Origin: Bryobacterales bacterium
Lineage (GTDB): Bacteria; Acidobacteriota; Terriglobia; Bryobacterales; UBA6623
Assembly (NCBI GenBank): GCA_963422375.2
Contig: OY729427.2
Coordinates: 448,001-512,000, forward strand
DNA: 64,000 nt
Direction of reading: 5' to 3'
Shown here: piece by piece, positions 13,861 to 53,137 of the stretch
How positions within the stretch are numbered: the stretch's first letter is position 1
Layout: each line of letters opens with the position of its first letter
Made by a program: the position numbers and the translations under genes
Notes under the pieces: generated by a model
Database searches by the model: none
The model's input: the letters and a program-made list of their open reading frames with translations, nothing else
What the model was told of the DNA's origin: nothing

Positions 13861-14710
13861 GACAAGCCCAACTTCGTCGTGGTCTTCATCGACGACCTTG
13901 GCTACGGCGACATCGGACCCTTCGGTTCCGACAATCCCACGCCCAACCTCGACCGCATGGCGGCCGTGGGCAGGAAGCTCACTTCGTTCTACTCCGCCTC
14001 GCCAGTCTGCACGCCGTCGCGGGCCGCTCGCTTGACGGGGCCTATCCGAATCCTGGGCGGCTCTGGTCGAGGCCCGGACCCGCGCGCAGATCGAGGAGGT
14101 CGCCTGGAGCGTGGGGAGCGCGCTGGGGACGCTTCGCGAGCTCGGCCTCGCCGAGAGCACGCTCGTAGTCTTCACGTCCGACAACGGCGGCTCGTTCGGC
14201 AGCCGCAACGCGCCGCTTCGGGGCAGGAAGGGCACCACGTGGGAAGGGGGCATGCGCGAGCCCACCGTGGCGTGGTGGCCCGGGACGGTGCCTGCGGGGA
14301 CCGCCAGCGACGAGGTCGCGACAACGATGGACCTGCTGCCGACCTTCGCCAGGCTGGCCGGCGGCGACCCGCCGGAGGGCCGGACTATCGATGGCCGCGA
14401 CATCGCCGACCTGCTCTTAGGCGGTCCTGACGCCCGGTCTCCCCACAAGGCCTTCTTCTACTACCGACAGCACTCCCTGCGGGCCGTCCGCTCCGGCAGG
14501 TGGAAGCTGACACGGCCGGAGGGCCATCTCTACGACCTGGACAGCGACGGGAGCGAGACTACGGACGTAGCCTCGACGCATCCTGCGGTGGTTGAGCGCC
14601 TCGCGAAGTACCTTGACGGCGCAGCGGCCGACCTCGGCGACGGCCGGGACAGTTATCCCCGCTGCCGTCCTCCGGGCTCGCTCGAGGAGCCCCGCACGCT
14701 GCTGCCGCGC
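13861..14710 (+). pseudogene. Internally deleted arylsulfatase remnant
   Basis: [16 protein letters not shown] and CTPSRA (formylglycine motif) joined out of frame to [20 protein letters not shown]; central part absent; in-frame TGA upstream; limits approximate. Confidence 0.8.
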
Positions 14711-14808
14711 AGGAATGCCGATCGATCGCAGGACGGTGCGCGGAGGGCGGGACGGCTGGCTTGCGCGCGCGAGGACCGCTGCGGGCACGCCGAACCGAGG
14801 ACGAGGCC

Positions 14809-14837
14809 TTGCACCGGTAACCCTGCGGTGCTAGAAT
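14809..14837 (+). promoter_or_regulatory. Sigma70-type promoter of tRNA-Gly
   Basis: TTGCAC-17 nt-TAGAAT with extended -10 TG, 7 nt upstream of the tRNA. Confidence 0.7.
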
Positions 14838-14844
14838 CACCCTT

Positions 14845-14919
14845 GCGGGAGTAGTTCAGAGGTAGAACGTCAGCTTCCCAAGCTGAATGTCGCGGGTTCA
14901 ATTCCCGTCTCCCGCTCCA
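14845..14919 (+). tRNA. tRNA-Gly(CCC)
   Basis: GCGGGAG/CTCCCGC acceptor stem, TCAGC-TTCCCAA-GCTGA anticodon arm, GGTTCAATTCC T-arm and encoded CCA. Confidence 0.97.
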
Positions 14920-16405: not shown

Positions 16406-16490
16406 GGAAGCACCTAGGGAATCCCGCCCGGCCGGGACGAATAAGATGGAAGCTGGTCGGCATGCCGCCAGGACGGCGCGCTGCGTGCTC

Positions 16491-19400
16491 ATGCCAATCC
16501 CCTTCCCTGAGTCGCGGAGGCTCCGCTGGCTATGCGGCCTGGCCCTCGCCGCCGCGGCGGCGGCTCTCTACATCGGCACGCAGCCCCGGATCCTGTTCCT
16601 GGGCTTCCCGAGCATGTACCGCCTGCTGCTCGCCGAGAGCTCCCAGCTCAGCGGGGTGGACTACGCGTACTGGAGCCCGGAAAGGCTCGACGACCTGCGC
16701 CTCGGCGAGCCGGACTTCAGCCGCTACAAGGCGGTCTTCGTCAGCGGACGGCGCTCGGACCCTCTCAGCCGCCCGGTGCGCCGGGCCCTCCGCGAGGCGG
16801 GCGAGCGCGGCACGCGGGTCATCGTCCTGCCCGCGCACGACGCGGCGCGCCTGGGGGTGGGGAACGCGGATTTCGCAGGGGAGGACCGCTGGCTGGACGA
16901 GTACTGGCGGTACGGCGGCGTCACGAACATGGCCCGGCTCCTGCAGACCGCCGCGGCGCGCTACCTAGGGCGCGATCTCGAAGAGCTGCCGCCCGAGCCG
17001 GCGCCCGACGACGGCTACTACCACCCGGACTCGTCCGGCCTTTTCACCACGACCGCGGAATACGAGCGCTGGTACGAGGAGTCCGGCCGCTTCAGGCCGG
17101 GAGCGCCCAAGGTGCTTATCGACTTCGCCGACGGCTGGAGGCTCGGGATGACCCAAGGCACCGAAGCGGTCATCCGCGCCTTCGAGCGGGGCGGCTTCAA
17201 TGCCGCCTCGATCTTCGGCACGGCGCAGACTGCCCCGTTCGCTCTGGAATACCGCCCCAGCGTCATCGTCTCCCGAAAGCACGGCCGCTGGTGGCTCGGC
17301 GAGCAGGGCGTCGACGTGCTGGAGGAGAGGATCGACGTGCCGCTGCTGCGGGGTCTGTCGCTGCTCTTCACCGGGGAGTCGTTCCGGAACTACCAGCGGA
17401 CCCGCGCCGGGATTCGCGACGCCGGCCTGATCATGGGCGCGATGGTGCCCGAGCTAGACGGCGCCATCCAGCCCACGCTGATCGAGGGCCTTGACTCTGT
17501 CTGGTACGGGCGGCGCTACGAAGCCTTCCGCGACGAGCGCATAGGCCTCCTCGTCGACCGCGCCAAGCGCTGGGTGCGTCTGCGGGAGGCGTCGAACGCG
17601 GACAAGCGCGTGGCGATCGTCTACGTCGCGGGAATCGGCAAGGGGCGGATCACCGCGGCCGGGCTCAACGTCCCGCGCAGTCTGATCGGCTTCGTGGCGG
17701 CCATGAAAGCGGCGGGATACTCGTTCGACCGCCTTCCGGAGGACGAGGACGCGCTGCTCGAGGAGATGCTCGCCAAGGGCCGCAACGTCAGCCTGGGACG
17801 GCCCCGCGACCTGCGAACGCTCTCCCGGACGGAAGGCGTGCTGCGGCTTCCGGCGGCGGGCTACGAGCGCTGGTTCGCGGACCTGCCGGAGCCGATGCGC
17901 AAGGAAGTCACCGACGCGTTCGGGCCGCCGCCGGGCGACCTGATGGTCGTGGAGGACGGCGGGCAGCCGGCCTTCGTGGTGCCGAAGCTGGACTACGGCA
18001 ACGTGATAGTCCTGCCCCAGCCGGTCCGCGGCTCGCGCATGGACGCCAAGCTGCAGCACGACGACCGGGTGCCCCCTCCCCACCAGTACCTGGCGGTCTA
18101 CTGGTGGCTGCGAGAAGTCTGGAAGGCGGACGCGATAATCAACTACGGCACCCACGGTACGCACGAGTTCCTGCCCGGTCGGCCGCTGGGCCAGCTGGCC
18201 GACGACTGGTCCGACCGGATCCTCGGCCCGGTCCCCAGCCTCTACGTGTACGTGATGGACAACGTGGGGGAGGCCCTGATCGCGAAGCGCCGGGGCGCGG
18301 CGGTCACCGTGAGCCACCTGATCCCGCCGGTCGATTCCGCGGGAATCGTGGGCGAGCAGCCGCAGGTCGCCGACCTGTACCGTCTGACGCAGCAGTTCCG
18401 GTCCGCCCGCAACGGGGCGCTGAAGGAAGGGATCCGCCAGCGGATCCGCTCCTCCGGATCCGCTCAAGGGTTCGACCGGGACATCGGGGCCGACTGGACC
18501 ACGAGCGCCCCCACAGACGCGGAAGTGGGGCGCCTGGGCCGACACATCCACCTCACGGATCGGGACCGGATCCCGGTCGGCCTGCACGTGCACGGGAAGA
18601 CCGCCCGGCCCGGTGACCTGGCTCCCATGGTGGCGGCGATGATGGGAGAGGCCTTCGTCGCGAGCTTCGGGTGCTCCGACGCCTCCGACACCCGGGGCTG
18701 CGCGGCCGAGGCGCGCGAGCGCGCCGAGAGCGCCGTGCGGCGCGCCCTGGCAGGCGGCGAGCGGCCCGCCGCAATGCGGCCCGTCGCCGCCGAGTTCGAA
18801 AGGATCCGCGACGCCTTCTCGCACGCGCCGGACGAAGTGGCCCACGCGCTCGACGCGCTGGCCGGGCGCTACGTGCCGCCCGGCGGGGGCGGCGACCCCT
18901 TGCGCAATCCGGGCGCCCTCCCCACAGGACGCAATCTCCACGGCATCAACCCGGCCGAGGTGCCGACCAAGGCCGCCTGGGAACTGGGCGTCCGCATGGC
19001 GGAGCAGCAGCTGGCGGCGGAGCGCGCCCGGCTGGGCCGCTGGCCGCGCAAGATCGGCTTCACCCTCTGGAACACGGAAGTGATCCGTCAGCACGGCACC
19101 GACCTGGCGCACGCGATGCACGTGATGGGCGTGCGGCCGGTCTGGGACCACCGCAACGTGGTGGAGGACGTCGAGCTCGTCCCGGCGGTCGAGCTCGGCC
19201 GCCCGCGCGTCGATGTCGTGATCCAAGCCGCGTCGCTCTTCCGCGACACGTTCCCGGACCGCATGAAGCTGCTGGACAGGGCCGCCCGGCTGGCCGCGAG
19301 CGCCACGGATGGCGAGAACTACCTTGCCGAGCACGCCGCCGAGGCCGAGCGCGAGCTGAAACGCTCCGGAGTGGCCGCCAAGGACGCGCGCCTGCTGGCC

Positions 19401-20390
19401 GGAGCCCGCGTCTTCAGCAACTCGGCCGGGGGATACGGAACCGGACTGGTCGATTCGATCGAGCGGAGCGGCAGCTACTCCTCGTCCGAGGGCCTGACCG
19501 AAGCCTATCTGGCGAGGACGGGGGCCGTGTACACGGAAGGGTTCGAATGGGGCCGACCCGTGCCGGAAGCGTACCGCGCCCAGCTGCGGCGCACCGACGC
19601 GGTCACGCTGAGCCGGTCGACCAACGTGGTCGGGGCGCTCACGCTGGACCACTACTTCGAGTACCTCGGCGGGATGACCATGGCGGTGCGCGACGCGACC
19701 GGGATCGCGCCCGAGACGTACCTAGCCGACGTCCGCGATCCGCAGGCGCCGCGCATGGAGACGGCGCGCGAGTCCCTCGCGCGCGGCCTGCGCGGCAAGT
19801 TCTGGAACCCCAAGTGGATTCGGGAGCTGCAGGCCGAGGGGTTCTCCGGAGCGGTCGAGATCGCCCAGACCGCGACGAACCTGTTCGGCTGGCAGGTGAC
19901 CAAGCCGGCCGCGGTCGGCACGGAAGTGTGGGACCGCGTGCATGCGGTGTACGTGACCGACACGCTGGGGCTGGGCGTGCCGCAGTGGCTGGACGACGCC
20001 AACCCCTTCGCCTCCCAGGAGGTGCTGGCCGTGCTGCTGGAAGCTGCGCGGAAGGGCTTCTGGGAAGCCGACCGGGGCGACCTCGAGCACCTGGCGCTGT
20101 CTTACGCGGACTCGCTAGACCGGCACGGCGCGTCCGGCAGCGTCCGCACGACCGGCAACCGGCCGTTCGAAGACTTCGTCGAGGCTCGGGTCGCGGCGTC
20201 GGCGCGCCCTGAGCTGGTCGCATCGCTTCGTGACGAGCTGCGCGACGGCAGCATTCCGCAGGTTGAAGGGCGGCGTCTGGTGAGGCACGAGCCGGCGGCG
20301 GCTTCCGGCCCGGTCGGCCCGGCCGCGGCCACAGCGATTCTCGGCGCGCTGGCCGGCGTGTTCCTCCTAGGCTGGCGGCGGATTCGCTAG
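16491..20390 (+). CDS. CobN/magnesium-chelatase-H family protein with N- and C-terminal membrane segments
   Basis: PPPHQYLAVY, GTHGTHEFLPG, GEALIAKRRG, LPTGRN, LGRPRVDV, DHYFEYLGG and NPKWI motifs; start uncertain (16446 or 16491). Confidence 0.9.
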   Translation: MPIPFPESRRLRWLCGLALAAAAAALYIGTQPRILFLGFPSMYRLLLAESSQLSGVDYAYWSPERLDDLRLGEPDFSRYKAVFVSGRRSDPLSRPVRRALREAGERGTRVIVLPAHDAARLGVGNADFAGEDRWLDEYWRYGGVTNMARLLQTAAARYLGRDLEELPPEPAPDDGYYHPDSSGLFTTTAEYERWYEESGRFRPGAPKVLIDFADGWRLGMTQGTEAVIRAFERGGFNAASIFGTAQTAPFALEYRPSVIVSRKHGRWWLGEQGVDVLEERIDVPLLRGLSLLFTGESFRNYQRTRAGIRDAGLIMGAMVPELDGAIQPTLIEGLDSVWYGRRYEAFRDERIGLLVDRAKRWVRLREASNADKRVAIVYVAGIGKGRITAAGLNVPRSLIGFVAAMKAAGYSFDRLPEDEDALLEEMLAKGRNVSLGRPRDLRTLSRTEGVLRLPAAGYERWFADLPEPMRKEVTDAFGPPPGDLMVVEDGGQPAFVVPKLDYGNVIVLPQPVRGSRMDAKLQHDDRVPPPHQYLAVYWWLREVWKADAIINYGTHGTHEFLPGRPLGQLADDWSDRILGPVPSLYVYVMDNVGEALIAKRRGAAVTVSHLIPPVDSAGIVGEQPQVADLYRLTQQFRSARNGALKEGIRQRIRSSGSAQGFDRDIGADWTTSAPTDAEVGRLGRHIHLTDRDRIPVGLHVHGKTARPGDLAPMVAAMMGEAFVASFGCSDASDTRGCAAEARERAESAVRRALAGGERPAAMRPVAAEFERIRDAFSHAPDEVAHALDALAGRYVPPGGGGDPLRNPGALPTGRNLHGINPAEVPTKAAWELGVRMAEQQLAAERARLGRWPRKIGFTLWNTEVIRQHGTDLAHAMHVMGVRPVWDHRNVVEDVELVPAVELGRPRVDVVIQAASLFRDTFPDRMKLLDRAARLAASATDGENYLAEHAAEAERELKRSGVAAKDARLLAGARVFSNSAGGYGTGLVDSIERSGSYSSSEGLTEAYLARTGAVYTEGFEWGRPVPEAYRAQLRRTDAVTLSRSTNVVGALTLDHYFEYLGGMTMAVRDATGIAPETYLADVRDPQAPRMETARESLARGLRGKFWNPKWIRELQAEGFSGAVEIAQTATNLFGWQVTKPAAVGTEVWDRVHAVYVTDTLGLGVPQWLDDANPFASQEVLAVLLEAARKGFWEADRGDLEHLALSYADSLDRHGASGSVRTTGNRPFEDFVEARVAASARPELVASLRDELRDGSIPQVEGRRLVRHEPAAASGPVGPAAATAILGALAGVFLLGWRRIR

Positions 20391-20500
20391 GCGGTCGGAG
20401 CGGCCGCCAGGCCCGTTGCTATACTGCGTTCACCGGCGGTCCATCCGCAAGCCGGCCGGGCAACCGCGACGCCGGCGTCGCGGCGATTGAGGCGGCCCGA

Positions 20501-21862
20501 GTGCTCAAGACGTTCTACATCGAGACCTTCGGCTGTCAGATGAACGTCCACGACAGCGAGAAGGTCCGCGGCCTGCTGGAGGACCGCGGCTACCGGAGGG
20601 TCCGCTCGCCCGACGAGGCGGGAATGGTGCTCTACAACACCTGCAGCATCCGCGACAAGGCGGAGCAGAAGGTGCTCTCGCGGCTGGGCGGACTGAAGCG
20701 GCGGAGCGCGGGCAAGACGATCGGGGTGCTGGGCTGCGTGGCGCAGCACAGCGGCGAGGCCGTCTTCGAGCAGGCCCCGCACGTCGATTTCGTGTGCGGG
20801 TCGGCCAGCTACAACGCCCTGCCGGCGATCCTCGACCGCGTCGAGGCCGGCGAGGCCCGCGTGACGGGCTTGGATCTGGATACCGACGAGACGTTCGACG
20901 TCCCGCGCGTCGAGCGAGACCGTCCCTTCAGCGCGTACATCACGATCATCGAGGGCTGCGACCGGAATTGCACCTACTGCGTCGTGCCCTTCACGCGCGG
21001 CCCTGAGCGGAGCCGAGACAGCGCGGCAGTCATGCGCGAGGCGCGCGACCTCGCCACCCGGGGCTACACCGAGATCACGCTGCTCGGCCAGACGGTGAAC
21101 AGCTACCGCGACCCCTCGCCGACGGGCTGGAGCTTCGCCCGGCTGCTCGAGGAGATCGCCGGCCTGGCGGATGTCCGGCGCGTCCGCTTCACCACTTCGC
21201 ACCCGTCGGACTTCGCGCCCGACATCGTCGAGGCGATCGACCGCAACGACGCACTGTGCGGCTCGGTCCACCTGCCGGTCCAGTCCGGCTCGACCAAGGT
21301 GCTGCGCGACATGCGCCGGACCTACAGCCGCGACCAGTACATGCGCTGCGTGGACGTCCTCAGGGGCGCCGATCGCGCGATCGAGCTGAGCACGGACATC
21401 ATCGTGGGCTTCCCGGGCGAGACTGAGGCGGACTTCAGGCAGACGCTGTCCCTGCTCGAGGCCGTCGAATTCAGCTCGGTCTTCTCGTTCAAGTACTCTC
21501 CCCGGCGGGGCACGCCCGCCGCCGAGATGGCCCAGATCCCGGACGAGGAGAAGGGCCTCCGGCTGAGCGAGCTGCAGGAGCGCCAGCGGCGCATCCAGCT
21601 GCGGCGCAACGCAAGCCTCGTCGGGAAGCGCGAGGAGGTGCTCGTGGAAGGACGCAAGGAGAAGTTCCGCCAGTGGGTGGGGCGGACCACGCAGAACCGC
21701 GTCCTCAACTTCACCGATCCGTCGGTGCTGGCCGACAGCCGCGACCTTCGCGGCAGCTACTGCCAAGTCCTGGTCACGGCGTCGGGGCCCAACTCCCTGG
21801 TCGGCGAGCTGGCCTCCGCCGAGACCGAGCCCGCATTCCGCGGGCTGCGCGTGCTGAACTGA
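20501..21862 (+). CDS. miaB: tRNA-2-methylthio-N6-dimethylallyladenosine synthase
   Basis: TFGCQMNVHDSE, NTCSIRDKAEQK and CDRNCTYC radical-SAM motif. Confidence 0.96.
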   Translation: MLKTFYIETFGCQMNVHDSEKVRGLLEDRGYRRVRSPDEAGMVLYNTCSIRDKAEQKVLSRLGGLKRRSAGKTIGVLGCVAQHSGEAVFEQAPHVDFVCGSASYNALPAILDRVEAGEARVTGLDLDTDETFDVPRVERDRPFSAYITIIEGCDRNCTYCVVPFTRGPERSRDSAAVMREARDLATRGYTEITLLGQTVNSYRDPSPTGWSFARLLEEIAGLADVRRVRFTTSHPSDFAPDIVEAIDRNDALCGSVHLPVQSGSTKVLRDMRRTYSRDQYMRCVDVLRGADRAIELSTDIIVGFPGETEADFRQTLSLLEAVEFSSVFSFKYSPRRGTPAAEMAQIPDEEKGLRLSELQERQRRIQLRRNASLVGKREEVLVEGRKEKFRQWVGRTTQNRVLNFTDPSVLADSRDLRGSYCQVLVTASGPNSLVGELASAETEPAFRGLRVLN

Positions 21863-21873
21863 AGGAGGCAACG

Positions 21874-22362
21874 ATGGCGGAAGTCGAGATGAGAATCTGC
21901 GGTCTCATGATGGACCCGATCACGAACATGCCCATCGTGGTCCTCAAGGACGCAGCCAACAAGACGGTCCTGCCGATCTGGATCGGCGTGTACGAGGCGA
22001 ACGCGATCGCCCTCGAGATCGAGAAGGTGTCCACGCCGCGACCCATGACGCACGACCTGTTCCGCAACCTGCTGGTCGGCTGCGACGCGTGGATCCGGCG
22101 CGTGGTGGTGAGCGAGCTCAAGGACGACACGTTCTTCGCGGTCCTGTGGATCGAGCGCGAAGGGCAGCTGATGTCGATCGACTGCCGCCCGAGCGACGCG
22201 CTGGCACTGGCCCTGCGCCTCGACTGCCCGATCTACGTGAACGAGCAGGTCATCGCGTCGTCGAAGCTCTCGCCCTCGCTCAGCGACAAGACCAACAGCG
22301 AGGAACTGCGCAAGTGGCTCGAGAACCTCGGCGAGGAGGATCTCGGCCAGTACAAGATGTAG
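21874..22362 (+). CDS. Bifunctional nuclease (DUF151/BFN) family protein
   Basis: LPIWIG..EANAIA, RPMTHDL and DCRPSDALALA; AAGGAGG RBS before ATG 21874. Confidence 0.92.
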   Translation: MAEVEMRICGLMMDPITNMPIVVLKDAANKTVLPIWIGVYEANAIALEIEKVSTPRPMTHDLFRNLLVGCDAWIRRVVVSELKDDTFFAVLWIEREGQLMSIDCRPSDALALALRLDCPIYVNEQVIASSKLSPSLSDKTNSEELRKWLENLGEEDLGQYKM

Positions 22363-22388
22363 GGCGGCCGCGACGTCGCCGGTCCCGG

Positions 22389-23330
22389 TCAGACCACAGG
22401 GCCGCGGTGCTCGCCGAGTTCCCCGGCCCTGCGTCTGCCATCCTCCAGCGCCTCAGTGAGCTCGGCACCCTCGAGAGGCTCGTAGGCCCGGACGGCCGCG
22501 ACCGCCTTGTCGAGCTCGGCCACGGACTTCATGCCCATGATCGCGACCGACAGGCCGGGGATGCCCAGGGCATACCGCACCGAGCGCCCGTAGAACGGCT
22601 CGTCGGACAGGATCGCGCCGTCCCCTTGCGTTCCGCCGAGGATCTTCATGGCCACCAACCCGAGGCCGCGGTCCGCAGCCTCTTTGAATAGCGTGTCCTC
22701 GAAGTTGTAGATGTGGCGGTCAATCGCATTGACGGCCGCCATGACCACTTCGACGCGGCCCGAGCGCAGGACCGGCAGGGCGCGCGCCGGCCGCAAGTGG
22801 CAGGTCATGCCGACGTGCCGAACGAGTCCCTGCTCCTTGAGCGCCTCGAGGCCCGCCAGCGCCCCGTCCTCGCCCAGCAGGATATCGAGGCTCGGGAAGC
22901 GGTCGGTGCGCCCGACGTTGTGGACGTGGACAAGATCGAAGTACTCGGCCCCGGTCTTCTGAAGGCTCTCCCGAACCTGCCAGGTCGCGTCCTGCCGCGA
23001 GGTCGCCTCGACCTTGGTGACCAGCACGAAGCGGTCGCGCCTGCCCTTGAGCGCCGGGCCGAGCCGCCGCTCGGACTGGGCGTAGATCGGCGCCGTGTCG
23101 AGGTAATTCACCCCGTAGTCAGCTGCGGCGGCGATGACGTTGTTGACCTCGGACTGCGAGACTCCGGCGCGCCCGAGCGGGGACGTGCCGATGCCGAGGA
23201 CGCCGACGTCGAGGCCGGTCCTGCCGAGCGGGCGCTTCCCGACTTGCTCCGCCCTGGCCGTCCGTCCGGCGGCCAGGGCTCCGGCGATGGCGGCGGTCTT
23301 GCCGAGGTCCCTTCGGGTGATGCGATCCAT
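22389..23330 (-). CDS. Aldo/keto reductase with a Tat-like signal
   Basis: ITRRDLG signal; RPLGRTG, NYLDTAPIY, LVTK and AMKILG. Confidence 0.9.
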   Translation of the reverse strand: MDRITRRDLGKTAAIAGALAAGRTARAEQVGKRPLGRTGLDVGVLGIGTSPLGRAGVSQSEVNNVIAAAADYGVNYLDTAPIYAQSERRLGPALKGRRDRFVLVTKVEATSRQDATWQVRESLQKTGAEYFDLVHVHNVGRTDRFPSLDILLGEDGALAGLEALKEQGLVRHVGMTCHLRPARALPVLRSGRVEVVMAAVNAIDRHIYNFEDTLFKEAADRGLGLVAMKILGGTQGDGAILSDEPFYGRSVRYALGIPGLSVAIMGMKSVAELDKAVAAVRAYEPLEGAELTEALEDGRRRAGELGEHRGPVV

Positions 23331-23808
23331 GAGGCGACTCCCCTGACAGTGTACCGACGAGCCCTTGCTGGACGCGAGCGTCCGAAGCGAAGCGGGCGGG
23401 CCGGCGAGGGACCGGACCGCACCTCGCACTTCGATGGAGCAGACTCGGAAATCGTCGGCTCGCGGCATGATCGACGCACGGCCCGCGCGCTCGCGGCAGG
23501 GACGAACGATAGACTCGGGAGCGGGCGGGTCGCTTCGCGAGGCCGGGCCGGCAGGAGGGAGCCTCGTCAGCGACGCTCGGATCGCGGCCATTGCATGGGA
23601 GCGCGACGCCGAGGCTCGTGCTGCCGACCGCGATTCCGCGCGCTGCGCCAATCTCCGCTGCAACCGCGACGGGCCAGCGGCTGTCCGCAGGGAGCCCGCG
23701 ATGCGGCCGGCACCAGGCCCCGCCCGCCGGTTCGGCGAGCGGGGCGGCGCCTCGCCCGCATCGACCTGCCGCGAAGATCTCGCCGGCGCCGGCACTCGTC
23801 GGCGCAAG

Positions 23809-26079
23809 CTAGTCGCCGGCGAACGTCCAGCGCAGGCCGACTCGGAACGTGCGCCCGGGGTCAGCCCGGTAATAGGTCGGGTTGGTCGCTTCGAGATTCG
23901 AGTCCACGGAATCGAACATGTTGTCGACGGCTCCGTAGATCTCGAACCCCTTGCGCAGGCGCTTCGCCAAGTACCAGTCCCACAGCTGGTAGCTGTCGAG
24001 GACCGTCGTGGCGCGAGGCCCGAGGATCGGCCACTTGCCGAGGTAACTTCCGCGGAAGTTGGTGCGGATCCCGCCGAAGCGCTCCGTGGACCACCACACC
24101 CGGAGATTGCCGTGATGCTTGTGACGCTGGCTCAGGAAGCCCCCCGTCTGCTTGTCCCGGGCGTCAAGGTACACGTACCCGCTCGAGACGAGCAGGCCCT
24201 GCGCAAGGCGCAGCCGGGCCTTGCCCTCGAGTCCCGTCGTGTACACGCGGTCGATATTCCGGTACATATAGGTCAGGCGGTTCAGCCCGGGATCGAAGGC
24301 GGACTGGACCCCGTGTTCCTGCAGCAGCGAGCGAAGCTGCTCGGGAGTCCGCGGCCGACCGAGCAGCTCGGTCTGAATCAGGTTCTCGATGTCGTTCCGG
24401 AAGTAGGTCACGCCCATGTTGAGGCGCCCGACGTTGCTGTCGAATCCCACCTGGGAGGTGGTCGACGATTCGGGTTTCAGGCTAGGATTGCCGATGATCT
24501 GATAGAGGCCCGACGTGGTCAGGAAGCGGTAATAGAGCTGTCCCAAGTCCGGAGCGCGGAAGCCCTGCCCTAGCGACGCCCTGAGGCGGAAGCGGTCCGC
24601 CGCCCGGAACATCAGTCCCAGGCGCGGAACCACAGTCGATCCGTACGCCGAGTGGTCGGTAACGCGTCCCCCGACCGTCAGGCTCAGGCGCGGATGCGCC
24701 TGAATGCGGTCCTGGAACCAAGCGTCCGCCATGCGGATCGACTGGCCGCTGTTGTCGCCGAGCAGGCGATTGTGGCCACGGTACTCGTCGTGCGTCCAGT
24801 CCAAGCCGCCTTGCAGCAGCTGCCGCCCGCCGAGCACGTGCGACAGGCTCGCGGCGAAGCGGTAGAGCCGTTCGTTGAGGTTCGCCTTGCCCTCGAATGG
24901 ACCCGGGACCGAGAGCAAGTCGACCGCGGACCTCTCGTCGTACTTGCCGTAGTACCCGCGAACCTGCAAGCTCGTTGCAGCCGAGATTCCGGCGTTCAGC
25001 GTCGCGCCGAAGTTCGAGGCGCTGTCGTCGGTGGTGGTGGACTGCGCGCCAGTGCGTCCCGCGAACACGCTGATCTCGCGGTTGTCGAAGGCGTTGGCCA
25101 GCATGCTCAGCCTCAGCCGCTGGGAGAAGTTCCGGCTGACCTTCGCCAGGTAGTCGTAGCGCCGGAAGCCCGGGCCGGTCGTGTCGAAGTCCTGGGGCGT
25201 CAAGTCGTACGGGTTGCGCTTGTGTCTCTCCGCAGCGAGGAAGCCGGACCAGCCGCCGAGGACGAAGCCGGTGTCGGCGCGCAGGTCGACACCGCCCATA
25301 GAAGCCGCCGAGGCCGTGACATCGGCGTCGAAGCGCCGGCGGGGCTCGCGCGTGATCATGTTGACGACGCCGCCGATGGCGTCGGACCCGTAGAGCGGGG
25401 AGAGCGCCCCCTTGACGACCTCGACCCGTTCCAAGCGGTTCGTCGACTGCCGGTTCAGGTTGAGGATGCCGCTCTTGACGCCACGCGCTCCGACGACCGG
25501 GAAGCCGTCGATCAGCACGAGCGACTGCCGGGAGTCGATTCCGTGGATCTGGATCCCGGCACGGCTTCCGGGCGAGCGGCTGGTCCTGGTCACGATTCCG
25601 GGCTCTTCGGAGAGAATGCCAGCGACGCTCTCGTACCCCGAGTCCCGCAGCTGGCTGCGCGAGACCACCGCGACCATGGCCACCGAGGCCTCCAGCAGTT
25701 CGTCCTCGCGCGACCCGGTCACGACGATGGACTGGGTCAGGGCCGCCGGCGATAGGGTCAGGACGAGCGGGGCCGGCGGCTCGCCGCCCACGCGCACCTC
25801 CGCGGAGGCCGTCGCGAAATCGTTCCGGGCAGCGCTCACGAGGTACGCACCGGACCGCAATTCGAATGCGAACTCGCCTCGGGGTCCGGAGCGGCGCGAG
25901 GTCTCGAGACCCGTCTGCAAGTCTCGAAGGAGCACGGCCGTGCCGACCATGGGCGCGCCCGACTGATCGCGCACCTCGCCTTCAAGTGCGAAGCGGTCGC
26001 GCGCGCTTGCCTGCAGCGCCAGAACCGCGAGCAACGCGGCCAGGCTCAGCGTCCCGGCGACGAGTCTCTTGGCCTGCAT
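23809..26079 (-). CDS. TonB-dependent receptor (BtuB/CirA/heme-receptor-like) with an N-terminal carboxypeptidase-regulatory-like domain
   Basis: Signal peptide, SIVVTGSR TonB-box region, RVEVVKGALSPLYGSDAIGGVVN plug, GFRAP, GNPSLKPE and GRTFRVGLRWTF. Confidence 0.93.
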   Translation of the reverse strand: MQAKRLVAGTLSLAALLAVLALQASARDRFALEGEVRDQSGAPMVGTAVLLRDLQTGLETSRRSGPRGEFAFELRSGAYLVSAARNDFATASAEVRVGGEPPAPLVLTLSPAALTQSIVVTGSREDELLEASVAMVAVVSRSQLRDSGYESVAGILSEEPGIVTRTSRSPGSRAGIQIHGIDSRQSLVLIDGFPVVGARGVKSGILNLNRQSTNRLERVEVVKGALSPLYGSDAIGGVVNMITREPRRRFDADVTASAASMGGVDLRADTGFVLGGWSGFLAAERHKRNPYDLTPQDFDTTGPGFRRYDYLAKVSRNFSQRLRLSMLANAFDNREISVFAGRTGAQSTTTDDSASNFGATLNAGISAATSLQVRGYYGKYDERSAVDLLSVPGPFEGKANLNERLYRFAASLSHVLGGRQLLQGGLDWTHDEYRGHNRLLGDNSGQSIRMADAWFQDRIQAHPRLSLTVGGRVTDHSAYGSTVVPRLGLMFRAADRFRLRASLGQGFRAPDLGQLYYRFLTTSGLYQIIGNPSLKPESSTTSQVGFDSNVGRLNMGVTYFRNDIENLIQTELLGRPRTPEQLRSLLQEHGVQSAFDPGLNRLTYMYRNIDRVYTTGLEGKARLRLAQGLLVSSGYVYLDARDKQTGGFLSQRHKHHGNLRVWWSTERFGGIRTNFRGSYLGKWPILGPRATTVLDSYQLWDWYLAKRLRKGFEIYGAVDNMFDSVDSNLEATNPTYYRADPGRTFRVGLRWTFAGD

Positions 26080-26082
26080 CGC

Positions 26083-26925
26083 CTAGTCCCCCGCGTGCCG
26101 CGCGACTGGCTGCCCGGGGCGGGCGTCGGCCGAGCCGCCGCCCTGCGGCTCGAGGAGTTCGATCCCGCTCCACTCGATGCGGTAGGTCGTGGGCTGCCCC
26201 CCGTCGATTCGCACCACTTGGCGGGACAGCGGCAAGTACTCCCCGTCGATGCGCTGGAACCTGCTGGTGTAGGCCCAAGCCTCGCGCACCGCGCCCGTGT
26301 CCCTGTCGAGGCGCGCCGCGAAGACGTGGCGCGGCAGGTAGCGCCCGGTCGCGGTCGTCTCGCTCTCGAGGACCGTGATGACGAACCGAGGCCCGGCGAG
26401 CCGCCGGTCCACCTGCACGATCCGACCGTCCCGGATGCGGTAGGCGGACTCGTACTCGTCGTTCAGCAGAACCTTCCGGCCGAGCGGGCTGGAATCCGGC
26501 TTCCCGTAGCGCGCCCGCCGAGGCTCGGTCGGGCTCGCGGGGACGCGGTGCATGAGCATCGAGCGCACCGCGGCGGTCACGTCCGGCAGGTCATCGGTGT
26601 GCTGCAGCGTTACCTGGACGGTTCCCCGCAGCCGGAAGAGGCAGGTTCCGTGAAACTCGCGCCCGTCGAATTGAACGGTCAGCTTGCTGCGAAACCCGGG
26701 AAACGAGTCCGACAGCACCTCACGGTTGCTGCGAGCCTGCCGCAGGAGCTCCGTTGCCGACACTTCGGCAGCGGCCGGGCCCTCCTCGGCAGCCGCGAGG
26801 CGCGGGACCGTCGCGCCGGGTAGGGCTAGAGCCCAGAGAAGGGCGGCGGCGAGAGGGCGTGCCCGGCTCGAGCGGCGGCCGCCCGCCGACACCGCCGGAA
26901 TGGCGCTTGCGCGTCTGAACATCAT
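26083..26925 (-). CDS. Exported DUF3386-like protein
   Basis: FPGFRSKLTV and YRIRDGRIVQVDR..RFVITVLE..GRYLP pattern; ends 3 nt before the receptor start (operon). Confidence 0.7.
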   Translation of the reverse strand: MMFRRASAIPAVSAGGRRSSRARPLAAALLWALALPGATVPRLAAAEEGPAAAEVSATELLRQARSNREVLSDSFPGFRSKLTVQFDGREFHGTCLFRLRGTVQVTLQHTDDLPDVTAAVRSMLMHRVPASPTEPRRARYGKPDSSPLGRKVLLNDEYESAYRIRDGRIVQVDRRLAGPRFVITVLESETTATGRYLPRHVFAARLDRDTGAVREAWAYTSRFQRIDGEYLPLSRQVVRIDGGQPTTYRIEWSGIELLEPQGGGSADARPGQPVARHAGD

Positions 26926-26994
26926 GCAGATCCTCCGTGGGAATCGCGAGAAACAGGACCGTCCCGGCTCCCGGGACGCCCTCAGTGTAGCAAT

Positions 26995-27015
26995 AAATGC
27001 AACTGTGTTTCATAT
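26995..27015. promoter_or_regulatory. Putative Fur/Zur-family operator 1
   Basis: AT-rich imperfect palindrome AAATGCAACTGTGTTTCATAT upstream of the TonB receptor operon. Confidence 0.5.
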
Positions 27016-27137
27016 ACAAAGGCCTGCGGCCGAAATCCGGCTGTCGTTCGCCACCTCGCATCTTGCTGATTTACAGTGGATTACCTAGGAATCTCCGTCG
27101 ATTCCGGGCGATCCGCTCTCTAGGCCGTCCTCGCAAT

Positions 27138-27158
27138 AATTGCAATAAAGTTACATTT
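27138..27158. promoter_or_regulatory. Putative Fur/Zur-family operator 2
   Basis: Reads AAATGTAACTTTATTGCAATT on the minus strand; shares AAATGyAACTkTrTTkCA with operator 1. Confidence 0.45.
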
Positions 27159-47843: not shown

Positions 47844-48098
47844 GTGCCTGTGACAAAACTCGTATCCCCTTGATAACAAGGACGTTAGGTCCAATCTCTC
47901 AAGGCGAAGATTTCACTGGAATGCTACGACTAGTCCGAAATCCTGCCAATTCTGGGTAGAGCGCGGAAATCTTCGCGATTGGCGTCTGAGCAACTTCCGA
48001 CCTTGGGCCCTATATGTTGTATTTGGAGATCCATCCGACATCAGGATGTAGTATGAAATGCTGATCAGGCCAGAATTCAGGGGTTTTGTCACAAGCAC
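47844..48098. mobile_element. 255-bp MITE (non-autonomous IS derivative)
   Basis: 16-bp terminal inverted repeats GTGCYTGTGACAAAAC (one mismatch) flanked by direct repeat AAGCTA at 47838-47843 and 48099-48104; AT-rich interior without a transposase. Confidence 0.85.
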
Positions 48099-48503
48099 AA
48101 GCTACCGGCGCATGACCCTGAGTTTGGGAGCGCGACTCGTGAGCGAGGCCCTCAATCCCGGCGTCCCGCCCGTCCGAGGGCCTCGCCGCTCGTTCGCTTC
48201 GCTCCACCCCGCGACGGACTCTACCTAGGGCCAATCCCGGACGAATCCAATTCAGATTGCACGGAAGGCTCACGCTTTGCACGGCGAGGCTCCCTGCGGG
48301 CAGCCCGCTATCAAACAGCGCTCCATTCTTCGCTCCGTTCTATGCACGTCGCTCCCGACTCCGACACCCTAGCTCCACACGAACCGGCTAGGGCGAGACT
48401 CCCAACCGAGGTCCGTGCCTACATACATTGAATTGGCTCAAGATATCCCAAATCATGTCGACTTCTTCAATGAGCAAAGATCCAGTCGGATGGGCACGGC
48501 ACG

Positions 48504-49465
48504 CTACGGACTCTCGAGACTCCCTTCCCATTCCTTTGGAACGAGGAGTTTCTTGCCGTTGTAATGAATGAGATGACCGGGTTTCTCGCAGATCCACACA
48601 TGAGAATCCCATGCCACATCATTGACATGTCTCCGAAACTCAGCAAAGTCAGGAAACGCACTGACATAGACGCATTTTGTGGAGGATCTCGACAAGAGTA
48701 GGTCCAATTCTACAATTCTCTTCTCTGACATCGGCCCGTGTGATGTAACTGCTTCTACAAGGAATATCCAATTTCTACCTCCGTCGAATAACTGATATCC
48801 GGTAACTTATCATGCTCAGTGATTCTTATGCTTAGAGTGTCGAGTCGATCATTGTCTACCACTAAGCTCTTACTTGCTGTGTCTCCGAGGTAAAGCAATT
48901 CAGACCCCGGCGCAAATTGCGGACCGAATTCTTCAACGACAGCCCTCTGAAGATCATTATGCCTGCCCGGAGAGAGCCGGATCTCCTGATCATCTGGAAG
49001 CCTTACCGGAACAAGATTATGATTCCTTTCCCTGCTATAGACTTCTTGCAAGATCGGCCGAGTGTGACGGAATTGTCGAATCGATTCATCCCATCTATCC
49101 GTTTTATACTTTCTTATCAAGTCCAGTACATCCTTGGTAATTGCGTAATGCGTATGCGGGCTATTGGTCGCCAGATCAGGGCCAAATGGATTGCGATCAC
49201 AAATCCGGCCCTGAACAAACTGGTGAAGCACTTGACGTCGGACTGTTTCACGCGTATTGGGAGCATAATTCTTGTCATAGTGTTGCCTCAAGTAGTCCAT
49301 GATCCCCTTTGTAACTGTGCAGGATCGACGCTCGGAATCGGACCAAGATGACCGCGGTGTTAGCCCGCACAATGCAAGGAGTGTCATACCAGAGATTTCG
49401 TTCTGTTGAGACTTCGGCATGCCCAAGGATCTGAGGATTCCTCGTGCCTCTTCAACTGTCGCCAT
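48504..49465 (-). pseudogene. BsuBI/PstI-family type II restriction endonuclease, frameshifted
   Basis: YAPNTRETVRRQVLHQF, LSPGRHN and HDKLPD, then NWIFLVEAVTSHGP in another frame after about 48790. Confidence 0.88.
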
Positions 49466-51113
49466 GATACGATACCTCCATGTAGTTGGAATACACCAGT
49501 CGTTGTGCTAAGGCATCTAATTCCATCAATGGGTCGGATACATTTTGAATCCGCCTGCCCAAAGCAACAATATCTTCAACTTCAGGTAGGGGCATAAGCC
49601 TCAACTCTGTGGCACTGACTTGCGTGTTTCCGTTGATGGTCCGGAAGTAGATGTCAAGAATCTGACTGTTGTATAGGGCGGCCAAACCCCAAGCTTCGTC
49701 TTCGGTTAGGCTGTCACAGGGTCGATAAATATAGTTTAAATGGTTCTCTAGACCGACCTCCGGAATCTGAAAGTTCGAAGCGATATACGGGGCTGCTGTA
49801 AGGCGTCTTGATTCTTCCTTGGCGCTAAAGCGACGCAACAGCACGTAGTTTCTATTCGGCACAAGGAGCTTTCGCCCTGCCTTGCGGCTGATATATTCAG
49901 CTTTGTACCGGTTAATCGGCCATCTTGCCTGCATGGGGCGCACGTGGTTCATCCATAAGAGCGGCACATGACTCTGAGGCGTCTTGCCGATTCGTGCTAT
50001 AAGATTTGTCGCACGAAAGGGAATTACTGGTCCAGTAGAGATTCTTAGACCTAGGCTTTCTAGAGTGTTGGGCCAGGAATCGACTAGCGCAAGTACTTGA
50101 TCATCTCTATCGGTCAGCGGGAGCCTCAGTACTTTGTTGATTGACCTTGAGTCCAAGGCGGAATCAATTGCGATCTCGCGACTGGTCAAGCGGAAGATAT
50201 CGCTAGAGCCACGACTAGTCGAAACGACCATCTGTCCATTCAACTGATGTGAATTCCATTGGTCACTGCGAGTTCCAGTGAAAATAATATTTTCCTGCAG
50301 GACTGCATCTCTTCCAAACGTATCACGTCTAGACTCAAATACATGCACGGCAGCTGGTTGGACCTTATCAAATAGATACTCGCGGAATTTTTTGAAATAC
50401 GGTCCAGAACAAAAACTGCGAGGAGTAATGAATATCAGATCGCCATTGTCACGCAATAAGGCGACTCCAACGGCCATGAATAGCGAGTAGATGTTTGGCT
50501 GTCCATGCACTACCGAAGAAACGGCTACGGCACGAGGATCCGATTTATTGACCTTGAAATAAGGCGGATTCGAAATGACAGCGTCATGGGATGGCTCCCA
50601 AATCGGTCGTGCATCAATGAAACGATTGTTTTCCAAGATATTCGAGTGAAGCAATATGAAGTCGCCTACCCTCAACTTGAATGTTACTTGTACATCGTGC
50701 AGATGCCTGCTCCACGATGAAAGGTAGTCTAACACTGCGTGAAGTGGCTCCCTCAGGTTGGGGTCGACTTCATACACATCCAAGCTAACTTGAAGCGGAC
50801 TTGATTGATGTCCGAGGAGTGCTTCGACTGCGGCACAGCAGAGTATGCCGCTGCCGGCTGCCGGATCTAGAATTCTTGGGTTCTCTCGGCCTGTCTTGAT
50901 TTGTAATGCCATGAATCGTGCGACGGTGACGGGAGTCAGGTACAGACCGAATTTCCGGCGGCGTGCTTCAGACTTTCCTGCAACGTACCACTCGCCTACT
51001 CTATCGGCATAGACTGTAGGTGATTCCATCGTCTCGGGCACCGGTATTGTGGAACTAGAGCAACGAACAGCGCCGAATTCTTCTTCGACATGGAATGCGT
51101 TCCTAGCGCCCAT
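49452..51113 (-). CDS. N6-adenine DNA methyltransferase (BsuBI/PstI/Eco57I-like)
   Basis: ILDPAAGSG (motif I), ISNPPY (motif IV), RRFSAKEE, ENHLN and GNTQVSATELR; low GC; start uncertain. Confidence 0.92.
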   Translation of the reverse strand: MGARNAFHVEEEFGAVRCSSSTIPVPETMESPTVYADRVGEWYVAGKSEARRRKFGLYLTPVTVARFMALQIKTGRENPRILDPAAGSGILCCAAVEALLGHQSSPLQVSLDVYEVDPNLREPLHAVLDYLSSWSRHLHDVQVTFKLRVGDFILLHSNILENNRFIDARPIWEPSHDAVISNPPYFKVNKSDPRAVAVSSVVHGQPNIYSLFMAVGVALLRDNGDLIFITPRSFCSGPYFKKFREYLFDKVQPAAVHVFESRRDTFGRDAVLQENIIFTGTRSDQWNSHQLNGQMVVSTSRGSSDIFRLTSREIAIDSALDSRSINKVLRLPLTDRDDQVLALVDSWPNTLESLGLRISTGPVIPFRATNLIARIGKTPQSHVPLLWMNHVRPMQARWPINRYKAEYISRKAGRKLLVPNRNYVLLRRFSAKEESRRLTAAPYIASNFQIPEVGLENHLNYIYRPCDSLTEDEAWGLAALYNSQILDIYFRTINGNTQVSATELRLMPLPEVEDIVALGRRIQNVSDPLMELDALAQRLVYSNYMEVSYHGDS

Positions 51114-51766
51114 AATTCCTCCTCAGTACATTAGATGACCTAGCGCTCGGCCTCCATTAAGAAGGCGAAAATCGTGCTTCTGCGACTTCAAGAATGAGGA
51201 AGTCGCTTCGAAACTCTCGTCGTGACGGAGGCGCAGATCCAAGTTGTCACGGGATAGCCGCTTGACTGGACCGGACACCGGGCGGTCGAGGTGCGACGCT
51301 GCACCGATCACAGTGTACCATTCGAGGGCGATGCCGGCGCACCGAGACGCCTAATCCAGTGGGGCCAGGCCGCGTTGACTCGTTGCACCCGCCGCTGACG
51401 CAGTCTGCGCGCCTTTGGCCAGCCCGGAGACCGATGTCGCCGCGGGCAGGAGACTTGCTCGACGCCCACGCATCGCAAGCCCCCTGCGGCAGGAACAAGT
51501 GGCGGCGCAGCCGATCCAGACGCGAGCGACGGGGCCGAGACCGCGCTCGGGGCGGGGGCACGCGTGCCTCGGGACCGCGACTTCCGGCTCTGCATCCCAG
51601 GGTGCGCGGCCGCGAGAGCGAGCAGGCGCCTGGCCAGCCCCGGCCGGGATCGCGATTCCGGCCACGCACGACACGGGGTGACGGTCGCAGCCAAGCGGGA
51701 AGCACAGGCTGCGCCAACCAAATGCCTCCTTGACGAGCGCCGCGCTCGGAGGCTCTACTAGAGCTA

Positions 51767-52999
51767 ATGCAGTCCGTTCCCCGCTCACAGCAGCGGTCCC
51801 TCACCGACCGGCTGATGCACCTAGCCGGCGGCAGCTACACGCCCGAACAGCGTCGGAAGTATTACATCAGCGGTCCCCAGTGGGCCGGCGCCTACGAGGG
51901 GCAGGCGCTCTTCCACGCACCGACTCGCCAGCCGGTCGAATTCGAGGAAGTGATCCGGAATCTCGGCGAGATCGGAATTCCCTGCTGGACCACTCACGAC
52001 AGCGACGTGATTCCCACGGACGCCCTGCTCACGGACCGGCAATGGGAGATCGTCGAGCGCATTAACACCGCACTGGACGCCCACGGCGTCCGCTGCTCCA
52101 TGGTTACCTGCGAGACGTTCTTCCACCCGGTGTTCGCGGCCAGCGCTGCAGCGGAATCTCCCGAAGTCCGGCGCTACGCGTCGCGACGTCTTCGGAACAC
52201 GGTCGATATCGGTCACGAGCTGGGGGCGCACTTCGCCGTCTACTGGCCAGGGACCCTAGGCTACATGGTGCAAGGGGCCATCGACGAGACCGATACCCTC
52301 CGGTGGTTCGCCGAAGGCCTCAACGCCGCCTGCGAGAGGGATATCGAGGTAGCCGCCGGGAAGGGCCGGGATACCCTCAAGCACTGCCTCGAAGCCAAGC
52401 CGTTCGAACCGCAGGCGCAGATCATCCTTCCTACCAGCGACGCCATGCTGGCGTTCATTTCCAGCGGGGTGCTGACCCACCCCGAGATGGTCGGCCTGAA
52501 CCCGGAATACTTGCACGAGTTGATGTGGGGCGGCGCCACCCGCGCCGTGCTGGCCCGCGCGTTGCTATGCGGGAAGCTGTTTCACTTCGACATCAACGAC
52601 GGATACCCGCTCAAGCACGACGTCGACCTAGGCATCGGCGTCGTCAACCCGCTCGACTGGCTCAACGTGCTGGTGCTGCTGAGGTCGCACGGCTACGATG
52701 GCCCGTTCAACCTCGACTTCAAGCCGCCAAGGACCACCTCGAACTACGGCGTCTGGAAAGTCAGCTTCCCGTCTGCCGTGGACCGCTTCATCACCCTGTG
52801 GAACATCGCGGGCGAGGTCATCGAGGATCCCGTCATGAAGGAAGCGACTGCGGCGCTAAGGAGTGGCGGCGGCGGGTCCGACGCCCTAGGCGATATCGTG
52901 GAGGCCAACCGGGAGCTCCTGACGCTCCACGAGCTCATGGCGCACCGGCTGTTTCAGCTCCTGGTCGGACAGCACCGAGGGCGCGTGTTCAGCGCCTAG
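51767..52999 (+). CDS. Xylose isomerase-like TIM-barrel sugar isomerase
   Basis: THDSDVIP, LEAKPFEP, GLNPEYLHE, KLFHFDIND and LDFKP resemble XylA motifs. Confidence 0.8.
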   Translation: MQSVPRSQQRSLTDRLMHLAGGSYTPEQRRKYYISGPQWAGAYEGQALFHAPTRQPVEFEEVIRNLGEIGIPCWTTHDSDVIPTDALLTDRQWEIVERINTALDAHGVRCSMVTCETFFHPVFAASAAAESPEVRRYASRRLRNTVDIGHELGAHFAVYWPGTLGYMVQGAIDETDTLRWFAEGLNAACERDIEVAAGKGRDTLKHCLEAKPFEPQAQIILPTSDAMLAFISSGVLTHPEMVGLNPEYLHELMWGGATRAVLARALLCGKLFHFDINDGYPLKHDVDLGIGVVNPLDWLNVLVLLRSHGYDGPFNLDFKPPRTTSNYGVWKVSFPSAVDRFITLWNIAGEVIEDPVMKEATAALRSGGGGSDALGDIVEANRELLTLHELMAHRLFQLLVGQHRGRVFSA

Positions 53000-53060: not shown

Positions 53061-53137
53061 TGGCGCGCTCGGGAGGATTCGAACCCCCGGCCTTCTGGTC
53101 CGTAGCCAGACGCTCTATCCAGCTGAGCTACGAGCGC
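53061..53137 (-). tRNA. tRNA-Arg(ACG)
   Basis: GCGCTCG/CGAGCGC acceptor stem, TCTGG-CTACGGA-CCAGA anticodon arm, GGTTCGAATCC and CCA. Confidence 0.97.

Follow-up and report, generated by a model that had tools for sequence, protein, structure and literature searches.

Biosynthetic CobN (7c6o, 9uk9) and ChlH (4zhj) are soluble, cytoplasmic proteins of the class I chelatase fold, with a GTHG-type histidine, that need AAA+ subunits and a biosynthetic pathway. HmuS, encoded in hmuYRSTUV and described from Bacteroides thetaiotaomicron (9d26, 9p4s; PMC12583661, Nath et al. 2025) and Porphyromonas gingivalis (PMC13227078), has the same fold, anchors at both ends and T-, U- and V-like partners, and its activity as a haem dechelatase, an NADH-dependent conversion of haem to protoporphyrin IX and Fe(II), was reported as recently as 2025 (PMC12583661). 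Here, we analysed a 64,000-nucleotide stretch of a Bryobacterales genome from the phylum Acidobacteriota (GCA_963422375.2, contig OY729427.2, positions 448,001 to 512,000), hereafter the window, which corresponds to C1:448001-512000 of a 6.0 Mb, 96.4% complete genome (G000) and encodes a CobN-family protein, S1 (Table 1). We propose, at a probability of about 0.5 and from sequence comparison, that S1 is a double-anchored HmuS relative that would remove the metal from a periplasmic metalloporphyrin together with T, U and V partners dispersed over the genome, and not with the TonB-dependent receptor encoded nearby.

BtuS, another related group, was reportedly described by Rodionov in 2003 as a B12-regulon family. 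Compared with the published description of BtuS1 and BtuS2 of B. fragilis (PMC6460266), S1 differs in that it has no cobalamin riboswitch and belongs to another phylum. The Pseudomonas aeruginosa operon PA1922-PA1925 (PMC4542158) resembles the S1 system in having a CobN-like protein and an ExbB/ExbD-type small pair outside B12 synthesis, but it includes a receptor and a Zur site, and S1 has neither. Proteobacterial proteins encoded in the order receptor-S-U-V form another clade, with DDPFQY where S1 has DHYFEY, PA1923 itself being outside the tree.

Sequence, predicted fold and phylogeny place S1 nearest to HmuS and not with biosynthetic CobN, which answers the phylogenetic check proposed in the original prediction for this locus. 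S1 matches PF02514 with an E value of 1.5e-282, and its best match in the PDB is HmuS (614 bits, identity of about 30%), followed by ChlH (398) and CobN (383). The AlphaFold model of amino acids (aa) 31-1229, with a mean predicted local distance difference test score (pLDDT) of 90.5, gives TM values of 0.88 to HmuS 9d26, 0.78 to CobN 7c6o and 0.72 to ChlH. In a FastTree phylogeny of 108 sequences, from which fragments shorter than 1100 aa and three redundant loci were excluded, the Acidobacterial clade and the hmu-type clade of Bacteroidota form one group with a support of 1.0, inside which L195 and P0111 appear as a weakly supported sister (0.65) of the Acidobacterial clade. In an IQ-TREE phylogeny of 37 sequences, the two clades are direct sisters (SH-aLRT 100). 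Both trees, in which Bacteroides, Segatella, Porphyromonas and an annotated Aureibacter receptor-HmuY-S-U-V locus stand in for B. thetaiotaomicron HmuS, separate these clades from operon-verified CobN and ChlH-type sequences. The close homologues of S1 carry the source labels Bryobacterales or Acidobacteria, and the clade is narrow, since 400 other sampled genomes of the phylum gave no match above 39% identity. In agreement with the earlier statement that such a chelatase is not known to be described in this lineage, no description of the Acidobacterial clade was found in the open-access literature, although sequences of this kind may be present in Dataset EV4 of PMC12583661.

The prediction of a protein of about 1300 aa with a hydrophobic segment at each end also held, the two hydrophobic windows lying at aa 11-29 and aa 1273-1296 (by hydropathy only). 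Because basic residues border each helix towards its own terminus, the body is predicted to be periplasmic, and both anchors score at least 1.5 in 46 out of 52 family copies, the six misses being mostly starts called too far upstream, with two marginal cases. From positive-inside topology and the analogy with HmuS, we infer that the body of S1 faces the periplasm, and we are highly confident that the protein is both periplasm-facing and distinct from biosynthetic CobN and ChlH. The start at 16491 was preferred over 16446, considering the length of the homologues (about 1302 aa) and a conserved -10-like element; most relatives carry TAGAAT, TAAAAT or TAAGAT at equal spacing before S1, the sequence farther upstream is unconserved, and a generic sigma-70 and terminator scan performed no better than chance. 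The ratio of nonsynonymous to synonymous substitution rates, about 0.06-0.15 in seven pairs, indicates purifying selection on S1.

The residues of S1 were compared with the HmuS features listed in PMC12583661, using an alignment of 51 clade sequences. The bis-His cavity of HmuS (His538, His1209 and Glu1212), in which His538 is reported there to be required for turnover, is present in S1 as His555, His1054 and Glu1057. These three residues, along with His264, Asp1053 and Glu594 (His254, Asp1208 and Glu577 in HmuS), are invariant in all 51 sequences. The DHxxE motif lies in LTLDHYFEYLGG, where HmuS has LSLDHxxEFMGG.

The description of S1 as a stand-alone chelatase is correct within the window and incorrect genome-wide. 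A paralogue, S2, which is 55% identical to S1, is located 200 kb downstream (C1:668.5-672.5 kb) in a cassette that encodes a DUF2162-like protein (T), a MotA/ExbB-family protein (U), a DUF2149 protein (V), S2 and a PF25183 receptor. This cassette, and not the window, is the receptor-linked system. The same genome carries an orphan U2-V2 pair at C2:3430 kb, between rpiB and an aminotransferase gene, and an orphan T2 at C2:2578 kb; the channel subunit of the U2/V2 pair matches the MotA/TolQ/ExbB family PF01618 with 38.2 bits (cut-off 22.9). A single metal-repressed operon of receptor, S, U and V was not found for S1, whose partners are dispersed and which has no operator, and the S2 cassette uses a different receptor. 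Around the paralogue, the gene order T-U-V-S2, PF25183 Oar-type receptor and PQQ-repeat gene (L006:6845-16641, C1:666.8-676.6 kb) is kept in 15 relatives, and a frameshifted extra DUF2149 fragment lies just past the cassette on the opposite strand (C1:676673-676994). In some metagenomic loci, T and U are seemingly fused and V follows the receptor.

The copy numbers of S and DUF2149 V are equal in 75 of the 77 family genomes (34 with none, 28 with one and 13 with two), after merging split matches to the hidden Markov models and excluding the biosynthetic-type CobN of G034, a protein of another clade in G038, a 129-aa fragment in G062 and the frameshifted V fragment of G000. The two exceptions are G049, an assembly of 230 contigs with T and V, no S and the adjacent reductase missing too, and G072, which has S1 and S2 with one T/U/V set. 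T follows the S and V counts, except that no T match was obtained for G024, which carries an S of a different type. Of the 37 S1 genomes, 36 have an orphan T and 36 an orphan V; the remaining one, G072, has neither and keeps the full cassette at the paralogue. At each of the 29 V loci examined, U is the neighbour of V. In the two trees, S1 groups as the sister of the only copy in genus g10, which is T-U-V-linked, with supports of 0.986 and 100. A PF25183 receptor is found beside all 16 S2 copies and, among 23 metagenomic loci, directly follows S in 13, the others being S1-type (4), ending early (5) or fragmentary (1). Among S1-only genomes, the sole PF25183 matches came from G051, which is fragmented, and from G066, where the copy is broken; none was found in g10. 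These patterns suggest that the ancestral unit was likely T-U-V-S-receptor, that the branch of S1 and g10 lost the receptor and that genera g1 and g3 dispersed the rest, with each piece retained under purifying selection, as seen for S1. It is very probable that the partners of S1 are T, U and V rather than the nearby receptor.

A further element shared by these proteins is a candidate grip for V. The TonB D-box, a short strand beside the membrane anchor, is captured by an ExbD dimer (PMC10907165), and S1 carries a conserved strand in a linker that is otherwise variable and predicted to be disordered (pLDDT below 50 in a model of the C-terminal half). The two are alike in consisting of a short conserved strand near an inner-membrane anchor, in a Pro/Ala-rich linker and with a genetic tie to an ExbB/MotA-family stator. 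They differ in that the S1 strand precedes the C-terminal anchor of an enzyme, whereas the D-box follows the N-terminal anchor of a transducer, and no sequence identity between them is claimed. Of 87 anchored proteins, 56 carry the pattern [VIL]xGxx[LMIF] no more than 45 residues from the C-terminal helix (mean 4.0 and maximum 13 in 500 shuffles), and most anchored proteins lacking it are from Bacteroidota and have a G-x-V-[ML]-K-K-E variant at the corresponding place; the flanks of the strand are unconserved among the sequences chosen for the motif. U and V are encoded within 4.5 kb in 50 of 70 anchored homologues with context, among them those of methanogens, which lack an outer membrane, and near only 1 of 21 homologues without a C-terminal helix, that one being cut by a contig end. 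The G038 protein has no motif and its genome no DUF2149, which is one case only; from its clade, a Cupriavidus protein does carry the motif, with no U/V nearby. Loci L089 (G038), L130 and L207 represent this further anchored CobN-like clade, with no adjacent U/V and mostly no linker strand.

By analogy, and tentatively, HmuU and HmuV could be a dedicated proton motor for the chelatase, with V gripping the VxGxx[L/M] strand as ExbD grips the TonB D-box. Such a motor would open the cavity or put it under strain and would take over, outside the cytoplasm of both bacteria and methanogens, the task that falls to AAA+ ATPases with cytoplasmic CobN and ChlH. In V, the single-helix partner, the NLFD motif with the membrane Asp is invariant in 49 of 49 sequences chosen for the N.FD pattern. 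U and V have been drawn as powering the receptor HmuR in PMC12583661 (Fig. 1 legend) and PMC10100974, while the text of PMC13227078 leaves possible an effect of T, U and V on HmuS activity. No paper on the linker strand was found in the open-access literature, and the terms DUF2149, CobN, Hmu and chelatase are absent from PMC12204202.

After the periplasmic location of the body, the step next in certainty is that T, U and V would form a complex with S1, followed by the action of U/V as a proton-driven stator that would pull the strand before the C-terminal anchor. Less certain still is metal removal as the reaction, the most likely target being Fe(II) in haem or a similar porphyrin; FeoB, which is present in G000, would import the iron, and we consider the chances even that the reaction is the removal of metal from an iron porphyrin. 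The least certain step is the physiological one, in which S1, with neither an operator nor a dedicated receptor, would act as a housekeeping enzyme that salvages any tetrapyrrole arriving in the periplasm, perhaps one made by the cell itself. Steady salvage fits better than an inducible scavenging island, considering the housekeeping neighbours of S1 and the lack of an operator, and an akin reuse of internal haem has been suggested for Methanosarcina BtuS (PMC10846266). A scan of the window for RNA elements and riboswitches detected only two tRNAs. A role of S1 as ferrochelatase replacement was ruled out, as all 77 family genomes encode a ferrochelatase; most genomes of several genera, G000 included, have two distinct ones.

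Several observations weigh against the proposed removal of metal from a metalloporphyrin with T, U and V. Three of them concern hallmarks of HmuS that are lost in S1. Met79, a haem ligand in the head of HmuS, is replaced by Arg in 42 of the 51 clade sequences and by Leu in nine. The methionine-rich insertion in domain IV, 120 residues long in HmuS (PMC12583661), corresponds in S1 to 86 residues with 4 Met, compared with about 155-340 residues in Bacteroides-type copies. Four of the five predicted propionate contacts are changed (HmuS Ser1014, Ser1067, Gln1198, Ser1199 and Trp1202 correspond to Asn861, Ala914, Ser1043, Thr1044 and Val1047), only Ser1199 being kept, conservatively. The absence of these features implies that the substrate of S1 may not be protohaem, although the Met79-to-Arg change alone does not exclude haem, because it also occurs in four proteins inside the HmuS clade, one of them beside HmuY (L208, Bacteroidota). 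S1 falls outside the HmuS family as defined, yet its metal site is kept. Besides, the ubiquity of ferrochelatase in the family and the fact that HmuY was not found in G000 make the haem-auxotroph logic of Bacteroides inapplicable, and a B. fragilis btuS1 btuS2 mutant is reported to still make protoporphyrin IX (PMC6460266). The family genomes are kin, so the co-occurrence of S and V represents a few independent events and not 77 tests. As for the motor, the outer domain of V has no significant match to ExbD beyond the membrane Asp in a PDB profile search, Pfam or hhalign, and the Atlas ranks ExbD nearest to V at only 0.76. Moreover, purified HmuS that has neither anchor can turn over haem when NADH is supplied (PMC12583661), so that the motor is not needed in vitro.

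The altered substrate face, with two Arg in place of Met-Gly at site 1, gives weight to an alternative that we regard as somewhat unlikely, namely that S1 and T/U/V act on tetrapyrroles of cobalt or zinc (corrinoids, or chlorins carrying Zn or Mg) and not on haem. In one metagenomic lineage (L265, L266), the T-U-V-S cassette follows cbiM/cbiQ and a gene for a CobW/ZigA-type GTPase, but the related locus L267 has no cbi context, and while expression of the distant PA1922-25 operon rises when zinc is depleted (PMC4542158), PA1923-like proteins share with CobN a DD where S1 has the HmuS-type DHxxE. The change of Met79 to Arg also occurs in the Bacteroidota copy beside HmuY mentioned above. Furthermore, the window has no cobalamin riboswitch, and the only one of the genome heads a separate operon of receptor, periplasmic binding protein and FecCD genes. 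This riboswitch-headed, B12-type uptake operon (L126:5400-10218, C2:2527 kb) is present even though no corrin synthesis and no cobalamin synthase turned up in this genome. The identity of S1 as an ordinary biosynthetic CobN or ChlH, which its PF02514 and NCBIfam CobN/BchH matches and the automatic names of its homologues would suggest, has a negligible probability and was ruled out. All nine scores against the NCBIfam CobN/BchH equivalogs are below the cut-off (the best is 785 bits for a cut-off of 1248), and the double anchors and the distance from CobN and ChlH in the trees argue in the same direction. The original prediction had seen no cobalamin or AAA+ partner genes in the window, and this extends to the whole genome, where searches for CbiC/CobH, the CobS AAA+ protein and cobalamin synthase gave nothing and the seven ChlD/CobT-type matches were weak, none exceeding the cut-off.

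Since the ancestral chemistry of the fold is an energy-requiring insertion, a motor would suit the uphill reaction of a forward chelatase or metal exchanger driven by U/V and acting on a periplasmic tetrapyrrole, and no iron-type operator was found upstream of S1. This is improbable, however, given the two ferrochelatases, the lack of any corrin synthesis found and the reverse direction in which the closest characterised relative runs. An even smaller chance is attributed to S1 being a non-catalytic tetrapyrrole-binding subunit that hands its cargo to T for import or sensing; T is retained as faithfully as U/V and B. fragilis btuS mutants still dechelated haem (PMC6460266), but the residue matching the catalytic His never varies, nor do the acidic residues paired with it, and catalysis is established for B. 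thetaiotaomicron HmuS (PMC12583661). Finally, the original prediction linked S1, by proximity only, to an operon of a TonB receptor and DUF3386, whose cargo S1 would strip of its metal. A scavenging enzyme requires some import route, and among 35 related S1 loci (20-kb stretches) a full-length receptor of the window type is present in seven, with one further receptor at the stretch edge and one remnant, while in two more it lies within about 15 kb of S1. Nevertheless, miaB is present in 32 of these loci, no receptor match was obtained for 15 of the 37 S1 genomes (at E 1e-100, a partial gene in G051 being counted as S1-type), the receptor is present in five genomes without an S1-kind chelatase, and it is never near S1 in the seven genomes of g3. 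The native receptor of the clade belongs to another family, PF25183, directly downstream of S in 13 of 13 non-S1 metagenomic loci whose sequence extends past S. Haem receptors have a His between the FRAP and NP motifs, and this receptor has none there. The link was dropped on the grounds of synteny, presence/absence and the operator described below, and a joint function of S1 and this receptor is considered improbable.

The neighbouring genes themselves are real and arranged as first described, with the receptor 3.42 kb from the S1 stop, convergent to S1, and three genes in between, miaB, a bifunctional-nuclease-domain gene and an aldo/keto reductase gene. The presence of the receptor and that of DUF3386 agree in 74 of 77 family genomes, and both occur together in 27. 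Two copies of a palindrome precede DUF3386, and three relatives, which helped to seed the matrix, carry it too; it is a putative Fur-family box, judging by its resemblance to such boxes and its context. The best unseeded match in G000 (24.5) precedes a FecA/siderophore-like receptor (C2:810089) and a weaker one a PepSY-TM gene (C2:3200625), so the context leans to iron rather than Zur. With a score of at least 10, the operator was detected in none of the upstream regions (200-300 bases) of S1 (0/32), U2 (0/28), T2 (0/12) or the cassette (0/18). The receptor and DUF3386 form a separate module, probably repressed by iron, that was inserted among housekeeping genes. The genes preceded by the palindrome are candidates for a Fur-family regulon and give an initial hint at a role of DUF3386 in metal uptake; no paper containing the term DUF3386 was found, and the Atlas gave DUF3386 clusters and one unnamed set. 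Three ordinary ExbD genes in G000 are available for receptors. Two other candidates were discarded. The twin-arginine aldo/keto reductase, considered as a periplasmic reductant, is kept beside miaB in g1 and g3, but it occurs in 54 of the 77 genomes, often where S is lacking, and was not found in the two g10 genomes with S. The FecA-like receptor at C2:810 kb, considered as the receptor of S1, is unspecific (54/77) and is not found in g10 or in two of the seven g3 genomes. Elsewhere in the window, positions 48001-52000 have a guanine-cytosine content of 0.51-0.57, against about 0.68, near a tRNA (53064-53137), which may indicate an insertion, and a sulfatase-like frame at 13879-14854, in two overlapping pieces and probably frameshifted as judged by eye, ends at the tRNA at 14845-14916.

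Table 1. Features of the S1 region (positions in the window; clade, 51 Acidobacterial sequences)
Feature	Position	Strand	Basis or remark
-10-like element TAAGAT	16442..16447	+	By eye; putative function
S1, CobN-family protein, 1299 aa	16491..20390	+	Acidobacterial clade sister to HmuS
S1 N-terminal hydrophobic helix, aa 11-29, basic residues before	16521..16577	+	Predicted signal/anchor
Arg87-Arg88, replacing HmuS Met79-Gly80 (haem site-1 ligand lost)	16749..16754	+	Alignment
His264-Gly-Arg, equivalent to HmuS His254-Gly-Arg (neck)	17280..17288	+	51/51 clade sequences
His555 in NYGTHG, equivalent to HmuS His538	18153..18155	+	Alignment
Asp1053-His1054-x-x-Glu1057 in LTLDHYFEYLGG, equivalent to HmuS Asp1208/His1209/Glu1212	19647..19661	+	51/51
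Conserved strand VEGRRL (aa 1258-1263), candidate grip for V	20262..20279	+	Putative role
S1 C-terminal transmembrane helix, basic tail WRRIR after, predicted inside	20313..20369	+	Hydropathy
miaB and bifunctional-nuclease-domain gene, conserved housekeeping neighbours, not parts of the system	20501..22362	+	Domain search, synteny
Aldo/keto reductase, twin-arginine-like N-terminus, not S-specific	22389..23330	-	Domain search
TonB-dependent receptor, separate module, inherited independently of S1	23809..26079	-	Presence/absence
DUF3386 exported protein, travels with receptor, separate module	26083..26925	-	Presence/absence
Palindromic operator-like box 1, TG[CTA]AAC-N3-[GA]TTGCA type, upstream of DUF3386	26996..27014		
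Palindromic operator-like box 2, upstream of DUF3386	27139..27157		

The family to which S1 is related is known from HmuS, BtuS and PA1923; what is new here is the dispersal of the T, U, V and S pieces and the conserved linker strand. T, U and V follow the chelatase and not the receptor, even after the operon broke apart. The Acidobacterial clade, a sister of HmuS that has the catalytic histidines, a different substrate face and a host with ferrochelatase, could reveal whether these enzymes act on other tetrapyrroles. The short strand is a single site where mutation would probe any coupling to a motor in B. thetaiotaomicron, a laboratory commensal. If the motor reading is true, the Acidobacteria would represent a natural experiment in which T, U/V and S, at three loci and with the receptor lost, are still kept one-for-one.

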